Assembly (NCBI GenBank): GCA_965218095.1
Contig: OZ244587.1
Location: forward strand, 1,668,720 to 1,732,719
Length of the DNA stretch: 64,000 nucleotides
From: Candidatus Poribacteria bacterium
GTDB lineage: Bacteria; Poribacteria; WGA-4E; PCPOR2b
Reading direction: 5' to 3'
The notes below the pieces were generated by a model, which searched no databases, was not told where the DNA came from, and saw only the letters and a list, made by a program, of their open reading frames with translations. Below, in pieces: positions 8,207-46,653 of this stretch; within the stretch, counting starts at the first letter, position 1, and each line of letters starts with the position of its first letter. Both the position numbers and the translations under genes were made by a program.

Positions 8207-8254
8207 GATAGCAACTTTGAGGGGACATATAGAGGGAGACTTTTCAAAGTTAAA

Positions 8255-19530: not shown

Positions 19531-19557
19531 GTCAACCTCCTAGGTTCTGTTGACATT

Positions 19558-20348: not shown

Positions 20349-20365
20349 ATGTCAACAGAACCTAG

Positions 20366-30252: not shown

Positions 30253-30302
30253 CGGTTTTTCCTTCCTTAAATGATTGAAAATTGATTTGCTCCCAACTAT
30301 TC

Positions 30303-31239: not shown

Positions 31240-31297
31240 TTCTAGCAATTTCACCTTTATTTTTCAACCACATTCCCTAAACCTCATCATGAGCACT

Positions 31298-32623
31298 TTA
31301 TCCCAGATCGCGGCGAAGTTCCGCTTCCGATGCCAAGTCCGCGACCGTCCCCGGCGGATGCTTATACCAGCCGGGGTCGTCATAACTGGTGAGATTTTCG
31401 CGGATTTTGACGATGGTAAACATCCCGCCCATCGTAATGTAGTCAAACGGACCGTATGCCCCGACCATGGGAATGCTGTTTTTCGGCACAGCCATGTGCC
31501 CCGATTCGACGTGAATCCCATGTTCACCCATGCCGTGCTCGCCCATCGTCATATACGCAGGCAGAAGTTGGCGGATTTTCTGGTCAATGTTGCCCTTTTT
31601 GATGCCGACCACGTTTAAAAATTCGTGCCCCATCTGGTTCATGACATGATGCGTCATGTGGCAGTGCATCGCCCAATCCCCCGGATCGCTGGCAACGAAC
31701 TCAACATCGCGGGTTGTCCCCACCGGAACGAGAACTGTTGTTTCTGGCCATTGTCCTGAAGTCGGGATTCGCCCACCTTCTGTAGCGGTGATTTTGAAGT
31801 AGTGCCCGTGCAGGTGAATCGGGTGATGGTCCATCGCCGAAAGATTGCCGAAGCGAATCCGCACCCGGTCGCCCAGTTTGGCGACCAGCGGCTCGGTTCC
31901 GGGGTAACACTTCGCGTTCATGGTTAGGATATTGAAATCGTTCATCTCGTTAGGGTTTGGCGTGGACGTCCCCGGATCGATCCGCCACTCGCTTAACATG
32001 ATGGCAAAGTCCCGATCTACTTGGTAATGGGGGTCAGGTTTTCTGGGGTGGAAAACCATCATGCCGAGCATCCCCATCGCCATCTGGGTCATCTCGTCGT
32101 GGTGGGAATGGTACATATACGTGCCTGATTGTCGAATTGTCCACTCGTATTTGAAGGTCTCCCCCGGCTGGATAGCTCGCTGGGTCAACCCACCCACACC
32201 GTCCATCCCATTCGGTAGAAAGACGCCGTGCCAGTGAACAGCGGTTGGTGCCTTGAGCCGGTTGGTCACATAGATGCGGACGCGATCGCCTTCCACGGCT
32301 TCAATGGTCGGTCCGTGCACCTGCTCGTTGTAACCCCAGCACTTCGCTTTCAGACCAGGGGCAAATTCATGCCAGACTTCTTCAGCGATAAGGTGAAAGA
32401 CTTTTACCCCATCAACAATCTTCCACGGTAGCGGTGCACCGTTCGGTGTGACGACCGGCGTGTAGTCTTTATCAGGGATACCCGGGTCCATCGCCGGACG
32501 ATTTGAATTGCCTGCGTAGGATTTCTGCCATTGGGATTGGGCGGCTTCTACACCTCCCGAAGCCCCGAAAGCGAAAGCCCCGCCAACGAGAGCACTCGTT
32601 TTCAAAAGATCCCTTCGGTTCAT
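31298..32623 (-). CDS. copA: multicopper oxidase (CopA/CueO-like) with a Tat signal
   Basis: MNRRDLLKTSALVGGAFAFGA. Copper-binding HWHG and HCHMTHHVMNQM motifs. Confidence 0.85.
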   Translation of the reverse strand: MNRRDLLKTSALVGGAFAFGASGGVEAAQSQWQKSYAGNSNRPAMDPGIPDKDYTPVVTPNGAPLPWKIVDGVKVFHLIAEEVWHEFAPGLKAKCWGYNEQVHGPTIEAVEGDRVRIYVTNRLKAPTAVHWHGVFLPNGMDGVGGLTQRAIQPGETFKYEWTIRQSGTYMYHSHHDEMTQMAMGMLGMMVFHPRKPDPHYQVDRDFAIMLSEWRIDPGTSTPNPNEMNDFNILTMNAKCYPGTEPLVAKLGDRVRIRFGNLSAMDHHPIHLHGHYFKITATEGGRIPTSGQWPETTVLVPVGTTRDVEFVASDPGDWAMHCHMTHHVMNQMGHEFLNVVGIKKGNIDQKIRQLLPAYMTMGEHGMGEHGIHVESGHMAVPKNSIPMVGAYGPFDYITMGGMFTIVKIRENLTSYDDPGWYKHPPGTVADLASEAELRRDLG

Positions 32624-32624
32624 C

Positions 32625-34082
32625 TCAATGTCCTCCTTCCTGGTTTGTCAATGACAGTTCAGCCATGCGGTGAAGCCGGTAGGGTCGAAAAGTGAATCCC
32701 ACTAGCCGACCGTTGAGAATCTGTTCCAGTTCCGCTCGTGCGACATGATAATTGTAGAGCGACTGGATATATTCCCGACCGGCGTCAATCTCGCGCTGTT
32801 TTGCGAGTAACAGGCGTAACGCACCGACCTGCATTGCATTGTACTGTAGTTGGACCTGTTCGAGAATCTTCTCTTGGAGTGGAAGTATTTCATTCTGATA
32901 AGACAGTGCGGTCTGTCGAGCGGTCAATAGGCGACGTCGCGCGGCGCGAACCGCGGAGCGGATCTCAACCGCCAGTGCGTGGTATTCACCCTGCTGTCGG
33001 CGTAACTCTGCCGCTGCCGCCGCTCGCTGCCCCTGATTTCGATCGAAAAGTGGAATCTCAAACCCCAGTGCGGGTCCCGCTGCCCACGCTCCTGCTTCCT
33101 GCTCAATCTCCCCACCGATTTCCAAATTCGGCACGAGAGACATCGCTTTTGCCACGCCGAGTTGTTTCCCGATGGAAACGATGCCCCGCCGTGCAATGGC
33201 AAGGTTGATGCTGTTTTCAATCGCCCGCTTTTCGAGGTTGTCGAGTCCTATTGCTTCAGCAGGAATGTCGCGGAGTCGAGATTCGACTCTCCACGCCGTA
33301 TCCTCTCCCCACAACCCCATCAAAGCGTTGAGTTGCTCACGGTTTTCAGCAAGCGTGACCTCCGCAGCAGCGAGTTCTAACTTCGATCGCTCATAGGACG
33401 TTTTTTGAAGCAGTAGGTCTAGCTCCGGGACATTCCCCGCTTCGACAAGCTGTTGGGCGAACTCGTAACCCGCCTGCGTTGCCAAGACGATCTGCTGGAA
33501 CATTTCCAACATCTGCTCATCAGCTTGAACGCGGTAGAATGCCATTCGCGTTTCCCCTGCCAAATCCACCACGGCAGCCGTCATGCGCAGTTTCGCTGCC
33601 TCGAACTGGGATTTCGCTACCGATTTGCGCATCGGCGCGTACAGCATGGAGAGGAAATCCATTTCGACTTCAAAGGTGTACGTGCTGTTGTCACGGAGTT
33701 TGTCCACCATCTCCTCGTCGGAATCAGAGGGGCCGAAGGTCGTTGCGCCGTGAAAAACCGGATTCGAGAACAAGCCAGCGTCAACAATGGCAGCGTGGGC
33801 AATCCCCAATTCCTCATAGGTCGCTTGCAGACGATGGTTATTCAACAGCGCAATTTGAACGGCAGCATCGACGGTCAGCGGCTTATCCAACAATTCTCTA
33901 ATTGCCTGAGCCGCTTCATCATCCGCAGCCGTGTCCGCATTCCAGTGAATACGGTAGCCAATACGGTCATCCACCTGCCGCTGGACTTCGCTGAAACCCG
34001 TTTTTTTCGACACACCGGCGCAACCGATCAGGACGAATGACGCCGCGAAGAACAACACGGCGCATCTCATTTTTTCGTTCAT
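32625..34082 (-). CDS. TolC/CusC-like outer-membrane efflux protein
   Basis: 485 aa. Lipoprotein-like N-terminus LIGCAG. Two OEP repeat halves. GAGGAG RBS. Confidence 0.75.
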   Translation of the reverse strand: MNEKMRCAVLFFAASFVLIGCAGVSKKTGFSEVQRQVDDRIGYRIHWNADTAADDEAAQAIRELLDKPLTVDAAVQIALLNNHRLQATYEELGIAHAAIVDAGLFSNPVFHGATTFGPSDSDEEMVDKLRDNSTYTFEVEMDFLSMLYAPMRKSVAKSQFEAAKLRMTAAVVDLAGETRMAFYRVQADEQMLEMFQQIVLATQAGYEFAQQLVEAGNVPELDLLLQKTSYERSKLELAAAEVTLAENREQLNALMGLWGEDTAWRVESRLRDIPAEAIGLDNLEKRAIENSINLAIARRGIVSIGKQLGVAKAMSLVPNLEIGGEIEQEAGAWAAGPALGFEIPLFDRNQGQRAAAAAELRRQQGEYHALAVEIRSAVRAARRRLLTARQTALSYQNEILPLQEKILEQVQLQYNAMQVGALRLLLAKQREIDAGREYIQSLYNYHVARAELEQILNGRLVGFTFRPYRLHRMAELSLTNQEGGH

Positions 34083-34103
34083 CTAGTAAACTCCTCGTCT
34101 GTT

Positions 34104-34985
34104 TTAATAGTTATGTTCGTGTGCATCGTGTCCATGAGGGTCTTCCGATTCATCCTCGTGATGCTCCATCTCCTCGTGCTCCTGTGTTTTGTGCATGTCA
34201 TGATGGTGATGCTCGTGTCCACCTTTTTCCTGCTTATGCTCGTGAGACTTCATGTCCTCGTGTCCAGACATATCGGTGCTTGAGACGGGCATCTGCATTT
34301 TCGCGCTGTGGCACTTGAGCATCGCGCTTCCGAAATACGGGTTGCGGACGTCCTCGCCGACTTGCAGCCAGATACCCCCTTGCGGGACATCGGACGCCAT
34401 ACCGCACACGTAGCTGTAGACCGGACTCTCGTAACTTGCTGGCACACTGACAGCGGCAACGAAGTGATTGAGGACATCGCTCAACGAACCGTAGGCGACA
34501 CGCGCAGCTTTGATGTCCGAGAGATCGCCGACTTCATGTCCATGGTCATGGATGGCCTCGGTATGGGCTTCGTAAGAATGCCACAACTCGGCGGGCACTT
34601 CGTGTTCAAGCGTATGGAGGGCTTCGAGCATCGCGTGCGCCTGCGCGTTGACATCTTCCATCGTGTCGGAAGCGAGTTGGTCGCCGATGACGAAATAGGC
34701 GTCTAGCATCATCGCCAGCGCTTCTTCGCCTTCCTCCGACAACGACGCAGCCCTGTGATGCGCTGCGACGCCTTCTTCAGTCATCGCCATCTCTTCCTTT
34801 AGCGTGTCTGGTGGAATTCCAAAGACAGTCTGCGGCGCACCAGGATGCGCCGGATGGTCCTGTGGAGTAGCAACTTCGACTGTTTTGCCGCCGCATCCAA
34901 CGACAAGCGACGATACAATGATGAGTCCAAGGATAAGTGTAGATACGGTTCGTTTATGGAAGTTGAAAACCCTGGATAACATGAG
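34104..34985 (-). CDS. His-rich periplasmic/lipo-protein (DUF3347-like heavy-metal-binding)
   Basis: LVVGCGG lipobox. C-terminal run GGHEHHHHDMHKTQEHEEMEHHEDESEDPHGHDAHEH. Confidence 0.5.
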   Translation of the reverse strand, partial: LMLSRVFNFHKRTVSTLILGLIIVSSLVVGCGGKTVEVATPQDHPAHPGAPQTVFGIPPDTLKEEMAMTEEGVAAHHRAASLSEEGEEALAMMLDAYFVIGDQLASDTMEDVNAQAHAMLEALHTLEHEVPAELWHSYEAHTEAIHDHGHEVGDLSDIKAARVAYGSLSDVLNHFVAAVSVPASYESPVYSYVCGMASDVPQGGIWLQVGEDVRNPYFGSAMLKCHSAKMQMPVSSTDMSGHEDMKSHEHKQEKGGHEHHHHDMHKTQEHEEMEHHEDESEDPHGHDAHEHNY

Positions 34986-35113
34986 CATAGCCTCCGTTTT
35001 GGGTAAAAAATGATCAAAGATAGGTTTTGGGCGTTTCAACATAGACGCGCAGAAACGCCGATCGATCAATAGATTTTGAGTCTTTCAGATTTGGGAAAGC
35101 GTGGAGGAGAAAA

Positions 35114-35581: not shown

Positions 35582-35876
35582 CAAATTACCGCCTCCCATG
35601 CAATAATACTTCTACGCAATAATAATAATTATACCCGGCTTTGCGTATGGAAGTCAAATTTTTCGCCAGGGGCATTTAATTCTCGGCTTTGACCTCTCCC
35701 CCGGCCCCTCCCCCCGATTTCTCGGGCAGAGGGGAGCAAAGGCCTCCCGAAAACACCGTCTGGCGCGAGATTTGTCTTCCCTTCTTTGCAGCGGAGAGGG
35801 GGTGAGGAGATGAGGTTCGGAGAATTAAACGACCCTAAATTTTCGCTCAGAAAAAACTTCCAAACTCTTGCAGAGA

Positions 35877-36173
35877 CTAACCCATAACCGCCTCTTCCTG
35901 TTCAACCGCAATCGAGAACCACCTATACAGCGCCGGAATCACTAACAACGTCAAAATGGTTGATGTGACCAAACCACCGATCACCACCGTTGCCAAAGGA
36001 CGTTGTACCTCGCTGCCAGTACCATGGGACAAGACAATGGGGACGAGCCTAAGCCCAGCCGCGGATGCTGTTATCAGCACGGGACGTAGCCTCAAGCAGG
36101 CGCTGCGAATACATGCGTCGGTCATGGGAATTCCCTCCTGTAGGAGCTGGTTGAGGCAGGTCACCAAAACCAT
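35877..36173 (-). pseudogene. C-terminal remnant of an RND heavy-metal efflux pump (CusA/CzcA family)
   Basis: Only the final 98 aa are present (...RPLATVVIGGLVTSTILTLLVIPALYRWF), against about 1040 aa for a complete pump. Confidence 0.65.
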
Positions 36174-36285
36174 GCCATTGGCGAGAGCAATCCCGAAGAG
36201 CGCAATGAAGCCTATCGATGCCGGGACAGACAGGTTTTGCCAACTCTTTGAGAGACCCGGAAGCTAAGATAAATCGTTTGATGAA

Positions 36286-36736
36286 GTGAAGATCTCCTTC
36301 GCTCAACGCAGACAGCCACTTCGGGATTTGCGCTTCGCTTACAACCGGGGAGATTGTTTCGGAGGAGTTCGATTTCACAGTAACACCCAACGCCCTTGCA
36401 AACGCAGTTCTGCCAGTAAGGCTTGATGGGGTTGGCACGCCGAAGCAGACCCTTCTGTTGCAGAACTATCTCAACCCGTTCAACCCTGAAACGTGGATTC
36501 CGTATCACCTTTCGGAAGCTGCTCCTGTAACCCTATCAATTTACGACACGACCGGACAACGGATACGGACGCTTTCGCTTGGATTCCAGTTAGCAGGCTT
36601 CTATCAAAGCCGTCCACGCGCTGCCTATTGGGATGGGTGCAACGACTTGGGTGAACGGGTTTCAAGCGGGGTCTATTTTTACCAATTGTCCACCCCATCT
36701 TTCTATCGGATGAAGCGGATGGTTATTGTGAAGTAG
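36286..36736 (+). pseudogene. orphan T9SS C-terminal sorting domain with linker, lacking a start codon and a protein body
   Basis: ...FDFTVTPNALANAVLPVRLDGVGTPKQTLLLQNYLNPFNPETWIPYHL...YFYQLSTPSFYRMKRMVIVK. The open frame begins right after a TGA at about 36283. Confidence 0.65.
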
Positions 36737-36784
36737 CCTTGGGTTGGTTGTTGCAACAATCGTCAATTGAAAGGCGGAATGACA

Positions 36785-37198
36785 CTACCAAGTACGAGTG
36801 AAACTTAACCTTCCGGTCAGCCCGGTTTGCTCTTCCGCTTTTTTGGTGTCATACCCAACAAGTATGCCGAGAGTGTTATTTTCGCCGTAGCCGATGTTGA
36901 TTCGCGGACCGACTACGAGACTGAAACTGTCACCCTTAACAGCGGGGATGGAAACACCAAGGTCAAACTCTCCGATGGTATCGTTGATGTAAATATTAGA
37001 ATCGAGCGAGATGCCGCCAACGGAATGGGTTGCCCCGATTAGGAAATGCGTTCCTAAGGTATCGGTATCGACGCGGAACCAGCCGGGAATGCGGGTTTTT
37101 TCGGCTGCCGCTTCACTTTCATCGCTCTCTGCCCAGACTGAACTACTCCCAACGGTCACGATACAAACGATTATCAAAACATGGGTGAATCTATACAT
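36785..37198 (-). CDS. small secreted hypothetical protein (beta-rich)
   Basis: 137 aa with a signal peptide. No recognised domain. Confidence 0.4.
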   Translation of the reverse strand: MYRFTHVLIIVCIVTVGSSSVWAESDESEAAAEKTRIPGWFRVDTDTLGTHFLIGATHSVGGISLDSNIYINDTIGEFDLGVSIPAVKGDSFSLVVGPRINIGYGENNTLGILVGYDTKKAEEQTGLTGRLSFTRTW

Positions 37199-37323
37199 TT
37201 TGCTTTATATCCTTTCTTGTAATAGACTAGGATTATGCCTTTAGAACCTCAATACCGTAGGCGGAGTATTCTTGCCCCGCTCCTCAATTATACCCTTGGC
37301 AGCCGATTTTTGAAATTAAAAAA

Positions 37324-37353
37324 TTTGTCAAAGTCAATCCGCTTGTGCTACAA
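37324..37353 (+). promoter_or_regulatory. sigma70-like promoter TTGTCA-18nt-TACAAT (copy 1 of a duplicated 35-bp promoter cassette)
   Basis: aaaaatttgtcaaagtcaatccgcttgtgctacaat. Identical over 35 bp to 43198-43232. Confidence 0.5.
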
Positions 37354-37374
37354 TAACCCAAATTGCTACCTAAA

Positions 37375-38486
37375 CTGAGGGGTGTGCATAGTAGTTCATT
37401 GGAAAACAGCCGCCATATGAGAGATATTGCGAGCAGGTAACTTCCATATGGCATTGGCAATCATAGCCACTTGCACTGATAACACCCCGATAGCTAAACA
37501 ACAGCGTACATTGAAAAACCCCTTGACCGGTAACTGCTTCTGTTGAGGAGTGGTGCCTATCACTTTAGCAATCAAGTCAAACAACGGTTCAACCGAACTG
37601 CGACGTTTGCTTAAACAGAGACGCTGCTTGGGTTGGTTGATAAATCGATGATACGCCTTGGCAAACCGTCCCTTTGTCCATCTAAGTGCCGGGGTAATCA
37701 AAGCGACTTGTGCCTTCGCCCAACGACGGATACGGTCTGCTTGGGTATAGGCATCATCGGCAGTGAGTGTCTGCGGTGAAAGTTGTGTCAGAATCTCAGA
37801 CGCTTTAGCATCTATCGCCCAACTTTCGGAGACCGACGCACGGTGCACAGTTATCAGTGTTGGGAACGCACCTTGTGTGCAGATAATGTGAAGTCCGTAG
37901 CCATAGACCCAGCCATGATAACCACTCTTGCTCCACGTGGCATCGGTGTCGAGGTTGCGTAGATGTTTAGGTGCTTTTCCTGCTTTGCGGTCAGTTTGAT
38001 GCCAGACGGGTCCTCGTGCCTTAAATAAACTTTTGTCGGCTACCAGATGAGCCAAGTTGAATTGTTGGGACAAGTCAGTGGCATACTGACCGATAAACAA
38101 TACAAATGCCTCTATCACTTCATATAATGCCTTATAGCGACGTGCAATCGTGGTTCGATGAGGGGGCTGTTGCCACCCCAGCATTTGTAACACTTCTGGG
38201 TGATTGATTAGCCACCGCCATTGCGTTTTGAAGCCATAGATGCCGTGAAACTGCATCAACATGAAGAAAATGATAAACGAGGTGGTTGAATATGTCAATG
38301 GTTTTGCGTGTGTGACACCTGGTTTGTCAATACGGTGTTGCATAAACTGCTCAAAGAGTTGCATAATAAGAGTGACATAATCAGCCAACATTGGTCTTTG
38401 TACCATATTGGGGCTCCTTTTGCTATGATAACAATAGGAAACCCTTTTGGCTTGATTATGTCAACTATATTTATGCACACCCCTCA
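37375..38486 (-). mobile_element. IS4/IS5-superfamily (DDE_Tnp_1) insertion sequence, 1112 bp
   Basis: 15-bp terminal inverted repeat TGAGGGGTGTGCATA / TATGCACACCCCTCA. A 7-bp direct repeat CCTAAAC at 37368-74 and 38487-93. One 336-aa transposase ORF at 37396-38406. Confidence 0.75.
37396..38406 (-). CDS. DDE transposase (IS4/IS5 superfamily)
   Basis: 336 aa occupying the body of the IS element. Confidence 0.7.
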   Translation of the reverse strand: MVQRPMLADYVTLIMQLFEQFMQHRIDKPGVTHAKPLTYSTTSFIIFFMLMQFHGIYGFKTQWRWLINHPEVLQMLGWQQPPHRTTIARRYKALYEVIEAFVLFIGQYATDLSQQFNLAHLVADKSLFKARGPVWHQTDRKAGKAPKHLRNLDTDATWSKSGYHGWVYGYGLHIICTQGAFPTLITVHRASVSESWAIDAKASEILTQLSPQTLTADDAYTQADRIRRWAKAQVALITPALRWTKGRFAKAYHRFINQPKQRLCLSKRRSSVEPLFDLIAKVIGTTPQQKQLPVKGFFNVRCCLAIGVLSVQVAMIANAIWKLPARNISHMAAVFQ

Positions 38487-38921
38487 CCTAAACTGGAAAA
38501 AACATTATTTGTGCAGAACGTTCAGTGTAGGTTAGGTTGAACGGTTAAAAGCGAATCCCTATCAAGGACAAATAGAGGTGCTGCCTTTCAACAACACGGT
38601 CTTATAGTGAAACCCAACCTCTCCATCCAACCGACGCGCTGATTATCAAGTGTTGGGTTTCACTCTATTTGTGAGATTTCAAGCAGAATCGAATCCCGCA
38701 ATCCAAGTGTAATGTTTGGTATTTTTCATTGGTTCCGTTCAACCCAACCTACGTGCTATAGACATATCGCTCCATATGACCCGGCACGCTGCGCCGCCCA
38801 TTGCTGGGTCATTGCGAAAGGTTGAGCACCTCGACTTTAACGAAAAACCGATGAATTTTCAATAGGCAGCAACTTAGATTATCATATACCCATTTGGGTA
38901 TCAAATTGAACGGAGAACGTT

Positions 38922-41900
38922 TTGAATAAGCGGATTACCTCAATACCTATTGTGCTAGCACTCTATACAATCCTAATATGTATTCCATCTTCGGTATATG
39001 CCAAAAAGGGGGTAAGACAGCAGATTCAACTGAAAGCAGGCGCGGCGTTGCAGCGGATCAAATCCGATTCAGAAACCCCTGTCCGTGCACGATGGCATCA
39101 GAACCGGGGGACAGTCCGCAACCTTTACAATTTGACACTGCCTGCCCCGATAGGAACGCTGGAAACATCAGTGCGTCAATGCCTTACCGACTATTGTGAC
39201 CTTTTTGCGATGACTGATCCAAACATCGAGTTGCGTCTCACGGATATCCAAAACAGCTTAACGGGCAGACATGTTCGATTCCATCAATACTACAACGGTA
39301 TCGAAGTTTACGGTGCAGTGACCTCGGTCCACACCAACCGCTCTGGGCAGATACGAGTCATCCACAACAACTACTTCCCACAGATCAACATCAGTACAGC
39401 GGCATCGCTCTCCCCGGAACAAGCAATCAGTATCGCCATTGCCGAGTCCGGTGCATTCGATTTGCGCAAGCCGCCGCGTGTCAACTTGGTAATTTTCCCG
39501 GATCGTAATACGGGACAGATAGGCGACTATGCTAATGCGTATCGCCTCGCTCACCGCACAATCGTGCACTCCCGTCAACCACTCGCAAGTTGGGAGTATA
39601 TCATTGACACCAACACCGGCGAGCTGTTGCACCGACGGAACCTGCTCAGGTTTGCTGACGGACAAGGGCGCGTCTTTAACCCGAATCCTGTTGTCGCCCT
39701 TAAAGATTTCACGCTCATGGACCAAGATGATTCTCCTGACGCGATACCAGAAGCAGCGTATACGGATGTGATGCTACCTGAGTTGGACGGGAGTGGTTTT
39801 CTTGATGGGCCTTACGCGAGTACGAGATTGACCGAAAATCGTGCCAACGAGCCGACGCTGGGGTTCAACTATCTCCGAGATGATCCCCGATTTGAGGAGG
39901 TGATGGTCTATTATCACGTTGATGCCGTTGGGCGTTATTTGAAAGGACTCGGCTTCGATTTCGTGGACAATTGGCAGATTCCTGCGAATGTGCATTTCGG
40001 TATGACGAGGGCTGGTTTCTATAACGATAGTGAGGGATCGATTAATTTCGGAGATGCCGGTGTTGATGTTGCCGAAGATGCTGAAGTGATTATCCATGAA
40101 TATGGTCACGCGATCCTTGATCGACAGGTCCCTAACATTAACAAGGGCGAAGGTGGCGCGATACACGAAGGGTTTAGTGATTTTCTCGCAGCCAGTTTTT
40201 TCAGTGCCGTGAGCGATGGTTTTAGTGACTCGATCGTTTTTGAATGGGCTGGTTCAGGTGACCCTGAGATTTACACTCGTCCCGTAACTGGTAACAAGCG
40301 TTATCCCGAAGACATTGTGGGTGAGCCACACACCGATGGAGAGATTTGGTCTGCGGCACTATGGGAGATTTTTGAGGCGATTGGACGCGATGCGTCGATC
40401 CGCTTGATTGTCGAGAGCCATTTCTTCCTCTCACCCGACACGGAACTTGTCGATGGGGCATCAGCGATTTTTATGGCGGATCAGGAACTGAATGGTGGAG
40501 TAAATTTCGACCTAATTTTGGGAATTATGGAGAACCGTGGATTCTTTACGCTGCCCAAATTGGCATCGGATGCCTTTGAGGAGAACGATACAGCGGAGAC
40601 CGCAGCCGCGATTGAGCTCCCGTTTGTCAACGGAGAACTGTCCGTCCACACAGCGGACAATGATGATTACTATAGATTCCGTTTGGATGAGACAATGCAG
40701 GTTGGGTTGGGAATTGATTTTCAACCCATTTACGGGGAGTTGATGCTAACATTGATGGGACCTAATGGTATCGAGCTTGTTACCTTCGAGACGAAGGATG
40801 TTACATCGCTTGAATTAGTGCCGGGCGATTATGTCGTTGCAGTTTCGGGCATCAACGGTGCGACTAACGATTATAAACTAGCGCTTATCGTTGACAACCA
40901 CGGCGATACGCCTGACACAGCGACATCTGTGGCGATCGGCGACACGATAGAAAGTTTCATCGACTTCAACGGAGATACGGATTTCTTCGCGATTGAAGGT
41001 GAGAAGGGGCAGCGCATTGAAATCACTATTACGACAAAGAACTCCGACCTCGACTCTCTGCTCGTTGTCTATGGACCAGATGGTGAGCTCTTTGCTAAAA
41101 GTGATGATGTCTTGCCGACCATCGGTCCGGAGCCGATTCCCGAACTAAATCCGCGTGGGATTGATTCCCGCGTGAGTGAAAAACTACCAGCCAATGGAAC
41201 GTACCTGCTCGCTGTCAGCAACATTGCACTTCCCAATCTGAATGCCCCCTTTGGCGGTCTAAACTACTCTTACACACTGACGATCAGTGGGAAGACCGAT
41301 GACCATGCAGCGTGCGGTAGTGGCGAGGAAACGCCATTGACCTTCGATGCACCTATAACAGGTATCATTACCCTTAGCACCCTTAGCGGTGATCCTACAT
41401 CACCGGATCCTCAAGACTCGGAACCCGATCTTCATGACTCGGACGGTTTCCGCTTTGAAGCGTCAGAGGGCACTGTCATTGCCCTACACGTTGAGGTAGA
41501 AACGCCTGCACGCGAGGTAATATTTATGGTGACCCTCCTCAGTCTTTTGGATGCATCTGGAGAAACGTTGGTATCTACTCGTGGCGCTCCTAATGGCTTA
41601 GAGGTGCGGATTGATGGATTTCTCATCCCTGCCGATGGCGAGTATTGTGTTGATGTTGCCGGTTTCATAGGAGGTGCGGTTGGTTCCACTTATACCTATA
41701 CGCTGACGTTATCTGAGGGCGAACTGCCCGAAGATGATCACGAAGATCTGAAAGGGAATCCAACCCCCTTAACGGTGGGTGTTCCTGTCGAGGGAGCGAT
41801 CAGTTTTGTCGGGGATGCCGATGCGTTTCAGTTTACTGCTACAGCGGGACAAATCATTACGTTAGCGGTGGACGGGCAACCCGCCACTCCGTTCTCTCGT

Positions 41901-42962
41901 TTAGTTTTGACCCTGTATAATAGCGATTTACAGCGTTTAGCCGAGGTTCCGCTCTTTATAGAAGGTATTGATTCGATGCTAGAAGGATTTGAAATTCCTG
42001 TGGACGGAATTCACTATGCCGAGATTAGAGATATGTTCGGAGGAAGTGAAGCGAATTTTTCCTACACACTGACCCTGACAATCGAAGAGGGAGATGTTGA
42101 GCGTAAATTTCCCCCTTATGATGTCAACCAAGATGGCAAGGTGGACATTTTTGATCTCGTGCTTGTCGGTCAACATTTCGGCGAAAAATTCATTAACGCC
42201 ACGCCAACTGCAGATTTTGGACAGTTCCGTTCGGTATCGCCCGAAGGGGAGTTGCGGCTCCTGATGACCCCGAGTGTGACGGATACACGACAATTGACCG
42301 TCTCAATCCACACCACAGCGATTGCCGATCTTTACGGCTACCATTTTTCAATCCAGTACGATCCGGCGATATTAGAGTTCCTTACTGCATCACCAAGCCC
42401 GGTTTTAGCCGCTGCGCTGCCCCAAAGTTACTGGCATATCTCCCAGCAAGGGACACAACTGAAGTTCACACAGACACGTCAAGCAACGCTGAAAGGTGTG
42501 ACAGCAGAGGGTTCACTGGCTATGCTTGTTTTTCATGTCAAAAAGACGGTGCCCCCGTCGTCGCAGCCCCCCATCCGGCTCGTTGACCTGCAACTGGCGG
42601 ATTCGCTGACAAGAGCGATTCCGGTGCACGTGGTCGGTGAGCGAGTGTCAATGACAGAGCTATTCCCTGAGAAACCGATGTTGCTGCAAAACCACCCGAA
42701 CCCGTTTAACCCGGAAACATGGATTCCGTATCAACTCTCTACCGATTCAGAGGTGGTTATCTCAATTTACGATACAAACGGTGAGCGTGTCCGTCAATTT
42801 GACCTCGGCTATCAGCACGTTGGGACATACATTACTCGCGGTAGGGCGGCCTACTGGGATGGAGAAGACATGTATGGTGAGCAGGTTGCGAGCGGCTTAT
42901 ATTTTTATCAGATCCGGGCGGGTGCGTTTTCTGCGACCCGCAAAATGGTTATCGTCAAATAG
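38922..42962 (+). CDS. secreted mosaic metalloprotease: FTP/PepSY-like propeptide, M36/M4-type gluzincin domain, 4 PPC (pre-peptidase C-terminal) domains, dockerin-like module, T9SS C-terminal sorting domain
   Basis: 1346 aa. TTG start with a GGAGA RBS. HEYGHAILD plus EGFSDF at about 40097-40200. Four DxDxY/FxF PPC units (ADNDDYYRF, GDTDFFAI, HDSDGFRF, GDADAFQF). YDVNQDGKVDIFDLVLVGQHFG at about 42115. C-terminus LLQNHPNPFNPETWIPYQL...YFYQIRAGAFSATRKMVIVK. Confidence 0.85.
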   Translation: MNKRITSIPIVLALYTILICIPSSVYAKKGVRQQIQLKAGAALQRIKSDSETPVRARWHQNRGTVRNLYNLTLPAPIGTLETSVRQCLTDYCDLFAMTDPNIELRLTDIQNSLTGRHVRFHQYYNGIEVYGAVTSVHTNRSGQIRVIHNNYFPQINISTAASLSPEQAISIAIAESGAFDLRKPPRVNLVIFPDRNTGQIGDYANAYRLAHRTIVHSRQPLASWEYIIDTNTGELLHRRNLLRFADGQGRVFNPNPVVALKDFTLMDQDDSPDAIPEAAYTDVMLPELDGSGFLDGPYASTRLTENRANEPTLGFNYLRDDPRFEEVMVYYHVDAVGRYLKGLGFDFVDNWQIPANVHFGMTRAGFYNDSEGSINFGDAGVDVAEDAEVIIHEYGHAILDRQVPNINKGEGGAIHEGFSDFLAASFFSAVSDGFSDSIVFEWAGSGDPEIYTRPVTGNKRYPEDIVGEPHTDGEIWSAALWEIFEAIGRDASIRLIVESHFFLSPDTELVDGASAIFMADQELNGGVNFDLILGIMENRGFFTLPKLASDAFEENDTAETAAAIELPFVNGELSVHTADNDDYYRFRLDETMQVGLGIDFQPIYGELMLTLMGPNGIELVTFETKDVTSLELVPGDYVVAVSGINGATNDYKLALIVDNHGDTPDTATSVAIGDTIESFIDFNGDTDFFAIEGEKGQRIEITITTKNSDLDSLLVVYGPDGELFAKSDDVLPTIGPEPIPELNPRGIDSRVSEKLPANGTYLLAVSNIALPNLNAPFGGLNYSYTLTISGKTDDHAACGSGEETPLTFDAPITGIITLSTLSGDPTSPDPQDSEPDLHDSDGFRFEASEGTVIALHVEVETPAREVIFMVTLLSLLDASGETLVSTRGAPNGLEVRIDGFLIPADGEYCVDVAGFIGGAVGSTYTYTLTLSEGELPEDDHEDLKGNPTPLTVGVPVEGAISFVGDADAFQFTATAGQIITLAVDGQPATPFSRLVLTLYNSDLQRLAEVPLFIEGIDSMLEGFEIPVDGIHYAEIRDMFGGSEANFSYTLTLTIEEGDVERKFPPYDVNQDGKVDIFDLVLVGQHFGEKFINATPTADFGQFRSVSPEGELRLLMTPSVTDTRQLTVSIHTTAIADLYGYHFSIQYDPAILEFLTASPSPVLAAALPQSYWHISQQGTQLKFTQTRQATLKGVTAEGSLAMLVFHVKKTVPPSSQPPIRLVDLQLADSLTRAIPVHVVGERVSMTELFPEKPMLLQNHPNPFNPETWIPYQLSTDSEVVISIYDTNGERVRQFDLGYQHVGTYITRGRAAYWDGEDMYGEQVASGLYFYQIRAGAFSATRKMVIVK

Positions 42963-43202
42963 TTAACTCAGGTTGCCACCTATCGCCCCGCTAGGGCTTT
43001 AGGTGACAACTTGAGTGTTTTTACTATAAATCACTTTACTCGCAGCTACTTCAGGATAACCATAAGAGAGTGACCCCGAAACCTTTTGAGTTGAAAAAGG
43101 ATGAAAACCGCGCCTTGCTAATCTTATTATAAAAAAGTGCTCCCGATCTTTGCAAGAAAAAAGCAAAGGAAAACTAAACGCCCCTAAATTGCGACAAAAA
43201 AT

Positions 43203-43232
43203 TTGTCAAAGTCAATCCGCTTGTGCTATAAT
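43203..43232 (+). promoter_or_regulatory. sigma70-like promoter TTGTCA-18nt-TATAAT (copy 2 of the duplicated cassette)
   Basis: aaaaatttgtcaaagtcaatccgcttgtgctataat, upstream of the 43281-46653 gene trio. Confidence 0.5.
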
Positions 43233-43280
43233 ATCATCTCTAATTTTCAAGTATCTCACGTTTGAAAGAGGTAAAGGTTC

Positions 43281-43583
43281 TTGCAGAACAATCGAACCCA
43301 CATCAATCCAACCGGCTGGGTAATTGCAATTGGGATTTTTTATTCTCTGATGGCAATAAGCCTTGTCGGGCTCACATATGAACACGACCACAATATCCTC
43401 GGTTCGACTGATTGTTCTGCTTGCTTCTTCAGTGCCAACCACCTCGGTATTGAGCTCCATGCTGTTGACTTCACCAATCTCGATACCTGCATCTCAATTC
43501 ACTCCCCTTTCGACCTTACTTTCATCTTCACGACACCTGTCAACAATATCCAAAGTCGTGCCCCACCAGCGTTCTCCATTTAA
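43281..43583 (+). CDS. small hypothetical membrane protein
   Basis: 100 aa with one TM helix and Cys/His residues (EHDHN, CSAC). First gene after the promoter. Confidence 0.3.
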   Translation: MQNNRTHINPTGWVIAIGIFYSLMAISLVGLTYEHDHNILGSTDCSACFFSANHLGIELHAVDFTNLDTCISIHSPFDLTFIFTTPVNNIQSRAPPAFSI

Positions 43584-43723
43584 TCTCCTAATCTAACCCA
43601 TATCTCTGCTTTTTTGACCCAATCAATTTCTATCTTTTCCCTGGCTGATCTGTATCTGACTTTGGCGGTAGTCTGCCTAAGTCGTGATGCCGGGAAAAAC
43701 AATTTATCTATATTTTGGAGGAC

Positions 43724-44299
43724 ATGATGTTTACCTGTTTTTTTAGATTCACTCTGTTACTACTCGCATTTGCTGTGCTGTTCGCCGCTTGTAGCGAAGA
43801 TGATAATCCCATTGTTGACCATGACGACGAACCATTTCATGCCGATGCCGACGGTTTTATCCTCAAGGTTGACGGGAACGAGATCTACCGCCAATTTCAG
43901 GGGACGCATACGGGAGGTATCACCCTCAAAGTCGGGGAGGAACTGGATGTTCTCGCCGTGTTCCTTAACCAGCATGAAGAGGAATTTTTCCCTGAAGCCC
44001 CGGAAGAGGGCGAAGATCACGACCACGACGATCATGGTGAGGAAGAGGTGTTTGCCTTAGCTCTCAGCGGATTTGATTCATCAACCATTGAAGTACACCT
44101 TTACGAAAGTGAGGAGGACGACCATGAAGATGATCACGCTGAAGAAGGCGAAGACCACGACGATGAGCTCGCCGAAAAATTTACCTTTGAGGTGAAAGGG
44201 CTTAAAGCCGGAAAAACAGAGTTCAAACTCCAGCTATTGCACGGCGACCATCCTGATTTCACGGCGGCGTTCTCGACTCCCGTAACGGTTACACCGTAG
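43724..44299 (+). CDS. His/Asp/Glu-rich lipoprotein (putative periplasmic metal-binding protein)
   Basis: LFAAC lipobox. GEDHDHDDHGEEE and EDDHEDDHAEEGEDHDDE runs. Confidence 0.5.
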   Translation: MMFTCFFRFTLLLLAFAVLFAACSEDDNPIVDHDDEPFHADADGFILKVDGNEIYRQFQGTHTGGITLKVGEELDVLAVFLNQHEEEFFPEAPEEGEDHDHDDHGEEEVFALALSGFDSSTIEVHLYESEEDDHEDDHAEEGEDHDDELAEKFTFEVKGLKAGKTEFKLQLLHGDHPDFTAAFSTPVTVTP

Positions 44300-44442
44300 G
44301 GAGCATTTGCTTGGGAGATTGTTTTGTCGGATTGCCAAATCCAACAGTTGGTCTAGAGTTGGCAATCCAGACAGAGCAAAGTGAAAGTGGAACTACCCGA
44401 ACTGAGTAGATTTTGACACAACTCTAAGATCAGAGGCTTCCG

Positions 44443-46653
44443 ATGAAACGCTTAATCTTTTGTCTATTCACCATTCTCCTGACTCATAATGTAGACGGGG
44501 TATCCTTGTCCCGCCCCGTTTCCGTTTCAGGGCAGGTGATTGATGCTGAAGCGGAAACTCCCCTTGTGGATGTCCATGTATCCCTGTTACGCAAAGCAGA
44601 AGGCGCATCTGTGTTCCAAACCGATAGGACTGGACAGTTTCGGTTTGATGGAATTGCGGTGGGAACGTATACACTTCGATTCAATCACGTTGGCTATGAA
44701 ACGTTAGATCAAGAAATCGTTGTCAAGGCGGACTCGACAACGATGGCAGTGAAATTGAAACGCAGTCCGCTCCAACTTGGAGAGATTGTTGTTACACCCG
44801 GTGACGAGGAGCACGCTCATTTTGAGAAAACCACCGACCTCAACCTTTCAGCGCAGCAGCTTGATCAGCAAATGGGAGTAACCATAGCCGAGACGCTTAG
44901 CGGAGAGGTAGGGATCGCCCAGCGGACGATGGGGCGAGCAACCGCGCGTCCGGTCATCCGGGGCATGGGCGGTGATCGGCTGCTTATCCTCGAAAATGGC
45001 GGGCGCACCGGCGATAAATCAGCGTCCTCAGCAGATCACGCGGTTGCAATTGACCCAACCACCGCGACAAATATCGAGATTACGCGCGGACCGGCGTCGC
45101 TAATTTATGGCTCAAGCACACTCGGCGGTGTCGTCAATGTCAAGCGCGAGACCATCCCGCAAACCCTGCCCCATCGTCCAACGATGAATCTCACATTTCA
45201 GAGTGAGTCGGTCAATTCAGGGCTGACCGGAACGACAGAGCTGACGATTCCGATTGGTAACCTTGCGTGGAGGCTGGAGTTGAACCGCCGCCACACCGAC
45301 GATACACATACCCCCATCGGTATTTTAGAAAACACGTCGCTATCGCAAACTAATTTTGCGACCGGTATCTCAATGGTCAAGGATTGGGGACACATTGGGA
45401 TTTCAGGCGGTAATTACCGTTCAGATTACGGGATTCCCGGTTCGCCGGAAGGACACATCCAAGGCGTCACTATCGACCTCGACCGCCAACGGTATGAAGG
45501 TAATTTTGAGTATGGGTTTCAGCAGTCGTTTCTTGAGAAACTGAAACTGCACTCGACCTACACACGCTATCAGCATCAGGAGATTGAATCAAACAGCACG
45601 CTCGGTGTTGAGTTCGGCCTATTGACATACAACGCGTCCGCATTGGCTTATCTGCACGGCGATGCAGTTGCCGGGGTTTGGGGCGAGTACCGTGACCATG
45701 CGACGGGCGGGTTTTACTGGACGCCGCACACGCGGGAGATGTCCTTGGCGGGTTTCTATTTCAAACAGAAGCGGCTCAACGCCTCCTTTACGTTACAAGG
45801 TGCAATTCGCTACAACATCAGACGGGTTGAGCCATTTGTGGAAGGTGCTGTCATCCGCGCAGGAACGGTGCAACGACGGGACTTCGGCGGCATGTCGAGT
45901 GCGGTTTCGAGTATCTATCATTGGAACGACAACTTGGGAACTGGTGCTACCTTGATGAAGACGTTTCGCACACCGGGAATCGAGGAACTCTTTTCAGATG
46001 GTCCGCATCTCGCAGCCTACTCCTACGAAATTGGTAATGCCGAACTCGGTTCGGAGGATGGCTTCGGGACAGAGGCATTTCTGCGCTATGCTGCCGAGCG
46101 CGTGAAACTAAATCTCACCGTTTTTCGCAACCAGATTTACAGTTATCTGATTCCGACCAACACAGGCGAAAAGGAGTGGGGGAGTGGTGCGGCGGGGTGG
46201 CTGTGGATATATCAATACCGGGGACAAGAAGCCATCCTTGACGGAGCCGAATTTAGCATTGACACTGAAATCGTCCCACGATTTCAGGCACAGGTGCGCA
46301 TGAGTTACGTCAAAGGGACTTTGACAACCAGTGGATCACCGCTTGAACGCATCCCGCCGCTCAACGGAAAAGTGGCGCTGCGATACGTAACGCAGCCGCT
46401 AAACTTTCACTTCACGGCGCGATTTTCAGACGACCAGCATCGGCTCGGCGAATTTGAAGAGGCGACCGACGGGTACATCGTCTACGATGTGGGCTTGCAG
46501 TTGGCGTTTCCGATGTGGCGACTTCAGCATCAGATGGTTGTCGCGGTCGAGAATATCTTCGACACCGAATACCGTCAGCACCTTTCGAGAATCAAATCAG
46601 TAATGCCGGAGCCGGGACGGAACGTGAAATTTTTATATCGGCTGAATTTTTAA
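44443..46653 (+). CDS. TonB-dependent outer-membrane receptor
   Basis: 736 aa. CarboxypepD_reg-like N-terminal domain, plug domain, and a C-terminal beta-barrel ending ...RNVKFLYRLNF. Confidence 0.85.
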   Translation: MKRLIFCLFTILLTHNVDGVSLSRPVSVSGQVIDAEAETPLVDVHVSLLRKAEGASVFQTDRTGQFRFDGIAVGTYTLRFNHVGYETLDQEIVVKADSTTMAVKLKRSPLQLGEIVVTPGDEEHAHFEKTTDLNLSAQQLDQQMGVTIAETLSGEVGIAQRTMGRATARPVIRGMGGDRLLILENGGRTGDKSASSADHAVAIDPTTATNIEITRGPASLIYGSSTLGGVVNVKRETIPQTLPHRPTMNLTFQSESVNSGLTGTTELTIPIGNLAWRLELNRRHTDDTHTPIGILENTSLSQTNFATGISMVKDWGHIGISGGNYRSDYGIPGSPEGHIQGVTIDLDRQRYEGNFEYGFQQSFLEKLKLHSTYTRYQHQEIESNSTLGVEFGLLTYNASALAYLHGDAVAGVWGEYRDHATGGFYWTPHTREMSLAGFYFKQKRLNASFTLQGAIRYNIRRVEPFVEGAVIRAGTVQRRDFGGMSSAVSSIYHWNDNLGTGATLMKTFRTPGIEELFSDGPHLAAYSYEIGNAELGSEDGFGTEAFLRYAAERVKLNLTVFRNQIYSYLIPTNTGEKEWGSGAAGWLWIYQYRGQEAILDGAEFSIDTEIVPRFQAQVRMSYVKGTLTTSGSPLERIPPLNGKVALRYVTQPLNFHFTARFSDDQHRLGEFEEATDGYIVYDVGLQLAFPMWRLQHQMVVAVENIFDTEYRQHLSRIKSVMPEPGRNVKFLYRLNF

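Follow-up and report, generated by a model that had tools for sequence, protein, structure and literature searches.

The insertion sequences of the IS982 family are elements of about 1 kb with 5'-AC ends. The direct repeats that they generate vary in length and measure 7 bp for some, such as IS1187 (Table 1 of PMC7335449). One of them, ISAba825, is found upstream of blaOXA genes, where its end forms a hybrid promoter (PMC7335449). Other relevant comparison systems are the GTAG-tagged REP families of cyanobacteria, with loops of 9–15 nt (Di Nocera 2013, PMC3733652), together with REPINs and BIMEs (Bertels & Rainey 2011, PMC3116915).

Likenesses to all of these come together in a locus of Candidatus Poribacteria, contained in a stretch of 64,000 nucleotides that is referred to here as the window (Table 1). 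The locus holds a gene for an M36 (fungalysin-type) metalloprotease of 1346 aa, predicted to be secreted, with a T9SS C-terminal sorting domain (Pfam and NCBIfam). The interval that precedes this gene is likely to have been built by successive mobile-DNA events in the Poribacteria genome, with no dedicated regulatory leader. It is ordinary mobile-element biology throughout, and its outcome is that a gene for a secreted metalloprotease of a sponge symbiont has been rewired at the level of both lineage and strain. Having come to lie behind the copied promoter of another operon, the gene was then parted from it by a MITE, to which an active insertion sequence was added in one strain.

Table 1. 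Coordinates of the features of the locus, as positions in the window.
Feature	Position	Strand	Description
IS-B	30305–31237		933 bp; ends ACCCAAGTTGC... and ...GCAACTTGGGT, starting 5'-AC
p137	36785–37198	−	homologue, with an internal deletion, of a conserved Poribacteria protein of 227 aa (p227)
Cassette A (left copy)	37318–37355	+	−35 TTGTCA at 37325–37330; extended −10 TGcTACAAT ends at 37354
Lineage-specific insertion	37356–43195	+	5,840 bp, or 4,722 bp minus IS-A and its duplication; between the cassette copies
MITE-B, left end	37356–37375	+	terminal repeat ACCCAAATTGCTACCTAAAC, IS982 type, begins 5'-AC
IS-A	37376–38486	−	1111 bp; 15-bp perfect inverted ends TGAGGGGTGTGCATA; present in this strain, absent in L002
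MITE-B, remainder	38494–38879	+	406 bp in total with IS-A taken out; right end 38828–38879 finishes in GCAACTTAGAT
REP-like inverted pair	38527–38752	.	unit 1 38527–38618 (+), spacer 38619–38651, unit 2 38652–38752 (−)
Candidate hybrid promoter	38856–38886	+	−35 TTTTCA at 38856–38861 in MITE-B; −10 TATCAT at 38880–38885 in flanking TATCATA
Native 5' region and M36 protease gene	38887–42962	+	RBS GGAGAA at 38912–38917; TTG start at 38922
Terminal-repeat-pair hairpin	42964–43018	+	TAACTCAGGTTGC...ACAACTTGAGT; right after the protease stop codon; U-run follows
Insertion right edge	43181–43195	+	CCCCTAAATTGCGAC, similar to an IS982-type left terminal repeat; same direction as the repeat at 37356
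Cassette B (right copy)	43196–43233	+	ancestral downstream flank kept; ahead of the trio

The two copies of the 38-nt promoter-like cassette are identical in 37 bases, with a single mismatch, and the sequence beyond the 38 nt is unrelated on both sides. The cassette reads TTGTCA-18-TACAAT in copy A and TTGTCA-18-TATAAT in copy B, with a TG ahead of the −10 box, and the 36-nt cassette pattern matches 37319–37354 and 43197–43232 against a chance expectation of 0. The initial annotation had described this repetition correctly, with coordinates one base off and without the full extent of the identity. It had also assumed that cassette A is the native promoter of the protease gene, a claim that is contradicted by the arrangement of the locus in three related genomes (L153, L154, and L156). 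In these genomes, p227 lies divergent from a trio of genes for a small membrane protein, a His-rich protein, and a TonB-dependent receptor, in that order, with one cassette in front of the trio and no protease in between. Two BLAST matches relate the intergenic region of L153 to the window, one of its positions 3–175 to 37171–37356 and the other of 137–1317 to 43196–44373 (82.9% identity), and, because both share one cassette, the single L153 cassette corresponds to both window copies. L154 and L156 give the same picture by BLAST and alignment. The upstream flank of cassette A is ancestral, since flank and cassette together align with the one intergenic region present in each of the three genomes, and p137, of which residues 1–104 and 93–137 align to residues 1–104 and 183–227 of P0243, is the left syntenic neighbour of the ancestral promoter region. 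Given one cassette and no protease in three relatives, the window bears a 5.84-kb insertion, and the cassette "duplication" is its flanking repeat. Judged by these alignments, an insertion carrying the M36 protease is thus demonstrated for the lineage of the window and of L002, a 6.27-Mb Candidatus Poribacteria contig that is 98.4–99.0% identical to the window. When up to 9 mismatches were allowed, a search for the cassette across 1.29 Mb of related loci returned only these two; the diverged single cassettes of L153, L154, and L156 were found later, after those genomes had been fetched. Cassette B is predicted to drive the trio.

In the history proposed for the locus, the ancestral state, shown by these relatives, is a single near-consensus cassette between the p227 gene and the trio. 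As event 1, a segment with the M36 protease gene was inserted just after the −10 box, with the 38-bp cassette on both sides, so that the left cassette now points into the insert and the right one still serves the trio. The insertion now comprises MITE-B, IS-A, the protease gene, the terminal-repeat-pair hairpin, and 177 nt of unique sequence (43019–43195), for which a search for relatives returned nothing beyond one 26-nt MITE-type motif. To our knowledge, a 38-bp flanking duplication is not a normal product of IS982-type or other DDE transposition. An allele with the insertion and without MITE-B would be defined by the junction GTGCTAYAATA-TACCCATTTGGG (search string GTGCTAYAATATACCCATTTGGG), and an insert-free allele by the upstream flank, the cassette, and then TCATCTCTAATTTTC. 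Neither the former nor a same-species example of the latter was found, nor were intermediate alleles of 88–98% identity by protease homologue search and exact look-ups, and the order of the events is therefore only inferred.

Event 2 would have placed MITE-B downstream of cassette A, ahead of the short native 5' region of the protease gene. The element itself is shown, from its sequence, to be a noncoding derivative of an IS982-family element. No ORF of at least 50 aa lies wholly inside its 406 bp, and both of its ends match those of IS-B in inverted orientation: TAACCCAAATTGC agrees at 12 of 13 positions with TAACCCAAGTTGC, the terminal repeat of IS-B (0.06 chance matches expected in the window), the left end with IS-B 30303–30324 at 18 of 22, and the right end with 31186–31240 at 81.8% identity over 55 nt. 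The alignment of these ends (A4) covers IS-B, L001, and L003 as well as MITE-B. Further copies are present in L001 (about 1827–2070; positions 1822–1972 are common to window 38752–38886) and in L003 (2776–3198, ~423 bp, with a 6/7 duplication), and pieces made up of terminal repeats only are found at L016 16290 and at window 42964–43018. The parent IS-B, present in the window in full copies, is placed in the IS982 family by its sequence, and its features fit what is described for that family (PMC7335449). Its perfect 7-bp duplication TATTCTA stands at 30298–30304 and 31238–31244, and its transposase scores 32.2 bits for PF13612 (cut-off 27) and, for NF033520, 107.3 bits in the C-terminal fragment and 18.5–37.8 in the N-terminal one, against a cut-off of 130 set for the whole protein. 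IS-B and MITE-B share with the IS982 family and its MITEs the 5'-AC termini, a full element of about 1 kb, 7-bp duplications (perfect in IS-B, possible in MITE-B), and a probable DDE_Tnp_1_3/NF033520 transposase. In contrast to the described systems, both copies of IS-B have a transposase gene broken up into two reading frames, and MITE-B houses an unrelated REP-like pair, has an imperfect duplication, and carries a promoter activity that is putative.

This imperfect duplication would consist of TACAATA (37349–37355) and TATCATA (38880–38886), which match at 5 of 7 positions, a level reached by chance in roughly 1–5% of cases in AT-rich sequence. Read directly, each differs from TATAATA of cassette B at a single position (6/7), and the two flanks look like a possible diverged 7-bp duplication of that −10 box, with the same spacing of 7 bp as the perfect duplication of IS-B. 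As an alternative to stepwise assembly, the whole of 37356–43195 could have arrived in one IS982-mediated cointegrate or translocatable-unit-type event. The IS982-type sequences at the edges would then be remains of the vehicle, MITE-B would at no time have inserted on its own into the −10 box, and the likeness of TACAATA and TATCATA would be due to chance. Such a one-step delivery would account for the IS982-type left-end 14-mers in direct orientation at both edges (ACCCAAATTGCTAC at 37356 and CCCCTAAATTGCGAC at 43181), for the tight bracketing of the protease (the right end of MITE-B lies 42 nt before its start and the hairpin 1 nt after its stop), and for a duplication that reaches only 5/7. 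It is nevertheless considered unlikely, in its account of the edges and flanks as much as in the single arrival, since the ends of MITE-B are properly inverted, its 406 bp are a typical size next to the ~423 bp of the L003 copy with its 6/7 duplication, and the flank spacing equals the perfect IS-B duplication. Moreover, the 14-mer at the right edge, compared with ACCCAAGTTGCGAC of IS-B by direct reading, needs an indel and could be diverged intergenic sequence (a weaker alternative alignment sets 43181–43195 against the upstream intergenic sequence), and a 38-bp duplication is produced by no known IS982 mechanism (PMC7335449). A composite transposon spanning 37356–43016 was rejected, because its flanks TACAATA and GTTTTTA form no duplication.

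Within the stepwise history, event 3 concerns an inverted pair of GTAG-tagged REP-like units, which is shown by sequence to sit inside MITE-B. The units follow the layout GTAG-GTTGGGTT-GAACGG...AGTGA-AACCCAAC, with the GTAG tag directly 5' of the palindromic stem GTTGGGTT ... AACCCAAC in all copies, and their pairing in inverted orientation gives rise to nested inverted repeats and to a 13-bp hairpin. This hairpin, formed by AGTGAAACCCAAC and GTTGGGTTTCACT (38606–38618 and 38652–38664), marks where the two inner boxes of the pair meet. The initial annotation had noticed it, and it proves to extend to 16 bp at 94% complementarity; its folding z-score is −4.35, and that of the whole pair is −3.62.

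The sequence between IS-A and the protease start (38487–38921) had been described as a structured leader of about 430 nt that may hold a regulatory RNA element. The first half of this description stands, as the segment measures 435 nt and folds better than shuffled sequences (z = −2.56). However, approximately 95% of the segment belongs to MITE-B, REP-like repeats included, and the segment is absent upstream of 27 related protease loci (orthologues and paralogues), which share only some 20–35 nt before the start codon. Neither the cassette nor p137 nor the trio genes are present at these loci; homology with the orthologous loci begins only at about 38901. Across 12 repeat copies, a covariance check finds 0 compensatory pairs, the covariation term being +0.33, with only the invariant terminal stem conserved and no conserved structure in the interior. 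An Rfam scan of 36500–44500 at E ≤ 1 gives no match, and the same scan on nine repeat-bearing metagenome loci gives sub-threshold microRNA-like hairpin hits at the repeats and unrelated pieces of group II introns. By sequence, then, the "leader" is a stack of mobile DNA made up of a small noncoding transposon, a palindromic repeat pair, and a recent insertion sequence, and a regulatory RNA in it is not supported.

The model in which cassette A is the protease's own promoter, followed by an ancestral structured 5' untranslated region with a cis-regulatory RNA that IS-A disrupts, is extremely improbable against this background. It can point to a cassette that directly precedes the leader in the IS-free allele, and to the folding of the leader (better than shuffles) and of the hairpin, with the z-scores given above. 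It is nonetheless largely refuted by synteny, in which the single cassette belongs to the trio, and it further conflicts with a segment that is missing from the related protease loci, has MITE-B copies elsewhere, and shows neither compensatory pairs nor an Rfam family. The locus illustrates that mobile-element debris can make up the whole of a long "leader" that folds well and has nested hairpins. A riboregulator should be proposed only after a look at conservation in orthologues and at the repeats within the segment. In its situation, and in that respect only, the segment resembles the Correia/NEMIS and ERIC elements, which are transcribed along with adjacent genes (cited in PMC3733652), as a structured repeat-derived stretch between a promoter and a gene. 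Its co-transcription is probable, and it may influence the fate of the mRNA.

Event 4 is the insertion of IS-A into the left end of MITE-B, in the window strain only. The reality and recency of this insertion are established by the empty site in L002, which holds a single CCTAAAC and no IS-A, while in the window perfect copies of this 7-bp duplication flank the element at 37369–37375 and 38487–38493. In L002, the cassette runs directly into the leader, as had been predicted for an IS-free allele. The element lies 20 nt inside the left end of MITE-B, antisense to cassette A, and encodes on the minus strand a 336-aa transposase (ORF 37396–38406; PF01609, 29.5 bits, cut-off 23). With this DDE_Tnp_1 transposase, its inverted repeats, and a duplication verified by the empty site, IS-A belongs to the IS4/IS5 superfamily, and the earlier description of an opposite-strand element of that type with a fresh CCTAAAC duplication is sustained, except for its size, which is 1111 rather than 1112 bp. 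A copy 100% identical over the 1111 bp is present at an unrelated site in L001, where the BLAST match spans 1112 bases because its last base is a flanking C that follows the element there too. By these sequence comparisons, IS-A is shown to be an active 1.1-kb DDE insertion sequence, inserted here in this strain only. Its scores fall far below the NCBIfam equivalog cut-offs for IS982 (37.2 versus 130), IS1182 (29.8 versus 270), and IS5 (21.2 versus 140). It has at least 1569 homologues, and none of the 120 listed bears an informative name; many sit on contigs some 1.1 kb long, which is what the collapse of repeats in assembly should produce. IS-A resembles unclassified DDE_Tnp_1 elements of the superfamily in having one PF01609 transposase of 336 aa, perfect inverted ends of 15 bp, a duplication that is short and AT-rich, and several identical copies. 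Its ends do not begin with AC.

As a consequence of event 4, transcripts from cassette A would have to cross approximately 1.5 kb of untranslated and partly antisense sequence, and would probably contribute little to protease expression. IS-A would thus probably cut the read-through from cassette A. The protease would more likely depend on a weak promoter-like site at the right edge of MITE-B, which may still drive the gene. This proximal site scores 9/12 in a promoter scan that finds 9 such sites in 2.4 kb, compared with 3.9 in shuffles, and it is intact in the IS-A-bearing strain. Its TTTTCA is the complement of the inward TTGAAA-17-TAAAGT site of MITE-B, so the conservation of this hexamer is uninformative on outward promoter activity. 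The arrangement recalls the ISAba825 case, in that MITE-B lies in a promoter and has, close to its end, a −35-like hexamer directed at the downstream gene. If the proximal promoter is in use, IS-A would lower protease expression rather than abolish it, and cassette A would mainly produce RNA antisense to the IS-A transposase gene. Downstream of the gene, the hairpin at 42964–43018 (−32.7 kcal/mol, z-score −6.18) is probably the protease terminator.

It is also possible, if somewhat unlikely, that cassette A was the only working promoter and that the proximal site is inactive, which would make the IS-bearing strain a protease-down variant. Cassette A is far nearer the consensus, with 10/12 matches plus the TG in the promoter scan and an upstream run of A's read from the sequence, compared with 9/12 for the proximal site. 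A long untranslated leader that runs antisense is moreover a likely substrate for premature termination, and the ~1.5 kb opposite the transposase gene would be such a leader. However, no intrinsic terminator is predicted on the plus strand in this interval (36700–39100), the sequence that holds the proximal −10 may have been copied from a bona fide −10 box, the ends of IS982-family elements are documented to form hybrid promoters, as in ISAba825 (PMC7335449), and the protease ORF is intact in both the window strain and L002. Between them, the two alleles form a natural experiment on how mobile elements affect expression in an uncultured symbiont.

The REP-like units are not restricted to this locus. 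About 15 copies are found in 470 kb of other Poribacteria loci, 12 of the 14 examined lying outside ORFs of at least 150 aa. Pairs are present in the window, L011, L014, L036, L056, L066, L104, L125, and L148, those of L011 and L014 being of the same size with unrelated interiors, and at least 120 metagenome contigs carry the repeat 18-mer. They resemble the GTAG REP families, REPINs, and BIMEs, a likeness drawn from descriptions rather than from the consensus sequences of numbered families, in the GTAG directly 5' of an 8–9 bp stem and in being dispersed, extragenic, and often located just past stop codons. Like REPINs, they are often inverted pairs that fold into a larger hairpin and lack flanking duplications. 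Unlike GTAG REPs, however, the Poribacteria units hold an insert of 60–75 nt between the loop edges GAACGG and AGTGA (65–74 nt between the stem arms in the window, against loops of 2–15 nt in described REP families), reach approximately 100 nt, or 230 bp as pairs whose halves differ in their interiors, and had no RAYT in the loci searched. Specifically, tblastn with 8 RAYT/TIRYT sequences (PMC3733652) over 1.29 Mb of loci returned nothing, and none of the ORFs flanked by the repeats is RAYT-like. An empty site for the repeat pair in L011 or L014 was not recovered, synteny in every other species ending with the protease stop codon, and a literature search by repeat sequence returned primer coincidences only. 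Two other origins were considered and rejected: an integron attC site, suggested by the GTTRRRY/RYYYAAC boxes, for which sequence reasoning finds the box order and position wrong, and descent of the boxes from the ends of IS-B, whose shared TTGGGTT core is oppositely oriented relative to the element end.

Two further, more novel readings of the locus are considered improbable. Based on the 38-bp duplication around a gene-carrying segment and the direct IS982-type ends at its edges, the insertion could reflect an undescribed route of gene capture, in which MITE- or IS982-mediated insertion duplicates long target stretches and hands its cargo a ready-made promoter. Separately, the ~100-nt Poribacteria units could represent a new long-loop class of REPIN-like element, which, if true, would imply cross-phylum transfer of the repeat together with its mobilising enzyme. 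The hairpin core of the REP-like units is nearly identical in cyanobacteria, in Moraxella plasmids, and in a Desulfobacterales plasmid, and short forms with loops of 9–11 nt are found in cyanobacteria, in other bacteria, and at position 2715 of the Poribacteria locus L009.

The region 5' of the M36 protease gene (TTG start at 38922), including its leader (38487–38921), consists of mobile DNA of known kinds, nested together, and is not a regulatory RNA. As the initial annotation had noted, a promoter cassette is present twice here: a pattern search found it at 37319–37354 and 43197–43232, with 0 matches expected by chance. The left and right copies (cassettes A and B) are alike over 38 nt with one mismatch, the likeness ending sharply at both sides, and in a promoter scan both are near-consensus and sigma-70-type, with TTGTCA, an 18-nt spacer, TACAAT or TATAAT, and a TG 5' of the -10.

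Features of the protease region and related mobile elements (window positions)
Feature	Position	Strand or orientation	Remarks
Cassette A	37318–37355		
Cassette B	43196–43233		
p137, 137-aa ORF	36785–37198	-	
IS-A	37376–38486	ORF on minus strand	1111 bp; perfect 15-bp inverted ends; CCTAAAC on both sides
REP-like inverted pair	38527–38752	two units, opposite orientation	per unit: 5' box GTAGGTTGGGTTGAACGG, 3' box AGTGAAACCCAAC
Promoter-like site TTTTCA-18-TATCAT	38856–38885	+	9/12; straddles right edge of MITE-B
Hairpin 3' of protease	42964–43018		
IS-B, IS982 family	30305–31237		AC...GT ends; perfect 7-bp duplication TATTCTA
IS-B copy 2	about 61810–62700		
IS-C copies 1 and 2, IS5 family	19540–20376; 60970–61809		~840 bp; inverted ends GGTTCTGTTGACATTT

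The origin of the cassette pair is revealed by three related genomes (L153, L154, and L156), in which the gene of a conserved 227-aa protein stands right beside the trio, in divergent orientation; the trio comprises the small membrane protein, His-rich protein, and TonB-dependent receptor genes 3' of cassette B. Between the two lies a single intergenic region, whose left side aligns with 37171–37356 and right side with 43196–44373, and whose sole cassette matches both copies in the window. Since one ancestral-type intergenic region matches both flanks, the window and the near-identical strain L002 hold an insertion at 37356–43195 (5,840 bp in the window, 4,722 bp without IS-A), with 38 bp of the trio promoter repeated at both sides. 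Cassette A, previously taken for a duplicated promoter from which the insertion sequence had probably uncoupled the protease, is thus one of two repeats flanking an insertion in the trio promoter. This insertion comprises MITE-B (a non-coding IS982-type derivative), the protease gene, a hairpin, and 177 nt for which no relatives were found apart from a 26-nt MITE-type motif. Directly 3' of the protease stop, two IS982-type terminal repeats form this strong hairpin (-32.7 kcal/mol, z = -6.2), and a U-run comes after it; mobile-element debris probably serves as the protease terminator. The right edge of the insertion (43181–43195) looks like the left end of an IS982-type element, oriented in the same direction as the one at 37356, which may point to an IS982-mediated cointegrate-type event or be due to chance.

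On the left flank, p137 is an internally deleted form of the 227-aa protein, which is secreted; residues about 105–182 have been lost by in-frame deletion, the motif S(L/F)VVGPRINIGY standing in two copies on either side. Gene debris lies 5' of p137 (35860–36740), including part of an ACR_tran (RND pump) gene, annotated in L002 at 7074–7337, and what is left of a type IX secretion C-terminal domain (36456–36736), similar to the terminal parts of the protease and a 1210-aa protein.

The insertion sequence IS-A was added to this arrangement later. Its 336-aa ORF matches PF01609 above threshold, while the NCBIfam IS982, IS1182, and IS5 models give 37, 30, and 21 bits, all far under their cut-offs. 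At least 1569 homologues exist, many on contigs of ~1.1 kb, and none of the 120 matches listed carries an informative name. Look-up of the neighbouring p137 led to L002, from a 6.27-Mb contig, which matches the window at 98.4–99.0% identity throughout the region but has no IS-A. A second copy on another contig (L001), at an unrelated site with CATTAT flanks, is 100% identical over all 1111 bp. Judging from these comparisons, IS-A is a recent and polymorphic insertion, and the empty site together with the identical copy elsewhere argues that the element is active, or was until very recently. The proposed insertion sequence with a fresh duplication between cassette A and the protease therefore stands: CCTAAAC is single in L002. 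The check that the initial annotation had set for itself, an IS-free allele with cassette and leader apart, did not refute it either, since in L002 the cassette abuts the leader.

The sequence surrounding IS-A has ends like those of the IS982-type element IS-B, whose transposase fragments match PF13612 and NF033520. The IS-B terminal repeat TAACCCAAGTTGC recurs with one mismatch at 37354–37366, directly 3' of the cassette A -10 (0.06 such matches expected by chance in the window), and 38828–38882 is 82% identical to the last 55 nt of IS-B. These ends, in inverted orientation, bound MITE-B, which measures 406 bp once IS-A, located 20 nt inward from its left end, is removed. Its 7-bp flanks, TACAATA and TATCATA, each differ by a single base from the cassette B -10, TATAATA. 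Relatives are found in L001, where the right 135 nt are common to both, and at L003 2776–3198, with a flanking duplication of 6/7.

In both IS-B copies the transposase is split across two frames at profile position about 86–88, either by a shared inactivating frameshift or by programmed frameshifting, which certain IS982 members reportedly use (PMC7335449). The right end of copy 2 looks truncated because the second copy of IS-C (NF033580, 146.5 bits versus a cut-off of 110; N-terminal ORF, DUF4096), an element located in CTAG sites, is lodged within its terminal repeat.

Inside MITE-B lies the REP-like inverted pair. The 13-bp-stem hairpin described initially does exist, together with nested inverted repeats, but it is repeat-derived, being merely the meeting point of the two inner boxes. 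In a profile search, pieces of the leader turned up dispersed over other loci, at unrelated sites. REP-like units occur about 15 times in 470 kb of other Poribacteria sequence, were extragenic in 12 of 14 examined, often with a stop codon just 5', and form inverted pairs of equal size with unrelated interiors in L011 and L014. Over 12 long units, conservation is limited to the invariant terminal 8-bp stem, with no compensatory pairs. Like the described GTAG REPs/REPINs (PMC3733652, PMC3116915), the pair combines a GTAG tag, a stem, an extragenic place, inverted pairing, and no flanking duplication; unlike them, the Poribacteria units have a 60–75 nt loop. A second difference is that searches for a RAYT gene in the loci compared, and among ORFs flanked by REP-like repeats, gave none.

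An 18-mer of the repeat is present on at least 120 metagenome contigs. Most matches listed are a 75-nt short form (GTAGGTTGGGTTGAACGG-AGTGAAACCCAAC, loop, then GTTGGGTTTCGTTCCTCAACCCAACCTAC), and the remainder are long forms resembling the window's units. The short form is also found, unannotated in every case, on plasmids of Nostoc, Calothrix, Brasilonema, Kovacikia, Stanieria, Moraxella bovis, Desulforapulum, and Catenovulum. The core GTAGGTTGGGTTGAACGG(N)AGTGAAACCCAAC and its partner GTTGGGTTTCGTTCCTCAACCCAACCTAC are almost identical in cyanobacteria, M. bovis plasmids, Desulforapulum pHRM2a, and Catenovulum (metagenome L030–L149; plasmid L150–L152). Several cyanobacterial copies have HIP1 sites nearby, and in one contig group the GTAG hairpin is nested in a separate dispersed 110-nt repeat. 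Group II intron domains RF00029 (51 bits) and RF02012 (47 bits) lie 35 nt to 1.4 kb from REP-like hairpins on two probably cyanobacterial contigs (L071 1108–1186; L045 364–475), which may be coincidence. IS982-type MITEs of other Poribacteria (L003 2776–3198; L016 16290–16340) hold a GTAG...CTAC palindrome (GTAGGTCGAG...CGCCTAC and GTAGGCATACTCCGTATGCCTAC) no more than ~10 nt from the terminal repeat, which suggests that REP-type hairpins lodge repeatedly in such elements.

A protein-guided scan for protease relatives yielded 27 loci, every one from Candidatus Poribacteria assemblies; the cassette, the 137-aa gene, and the small membrane protein and His-rich protein genes were near the protease in none of the 27. 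The protease of the closest orthologues is preceded by a gene that encodes a type IX secretion C-terminal domain, ends 150–220 nt upstream, and is followed by a terminator-like hairpin. Alignment to the window covers only the last 20–35 nt 5' of the start codon, and thus the leader is specific to the window's lineage. The suggestion that it holds a regulatory RNA element is not borne out, as it is composed of mobile DNA absent 5' of the protease at the 27 related loci; the original observation is confirmed, and its interpretation is supported in part, with a mobile-DNA nest instead of a regulatory leader.

Without MITE-B, cassette A would lie ~36 nt from the TTG start, an ordinary promoter-gene distance. 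MITE-B would extend the 5' UTR to ~450 nt, and IS-A to ~1.56 kb, antisense to the transposase gene. Premature termination is a general risk for long untranslated RNA; no plus-strand intrinsic terminator is predicted between cassette A and the protease. Our best guess from sequence is that protease expression in the IS-bearing strain is lowered, not abolished. Hybrid promoters are known to arise at IS982-family ends (PMC7335449), and a promoter-like site straddles the right edge of MITE-B. Conservation of its TTTTCA is no evidence for outward activity, because it is the complement of the element's inward TTGAAA-17-TAAAGT site.

The trio (43281–46653), whose His-rich member is an acidic lipoprotein, looks like a metal-uptake unit, and multicopper oxidase, outer-membrane efflux, and DUF3347 genes lie nearby (31298–35069). 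The duplicated promoter could therefore be metal-regulated; no operator-like palindrome is evident. Elsewhere in the window, direct repeats of 224 nt with 95.5% identity (3870–4093 and 7987–8207) bracket the 1210-aa ORF (4274–7906), which contains long internal tandem repeats at 5247–6802 (periods ~66 and ~125 nt).
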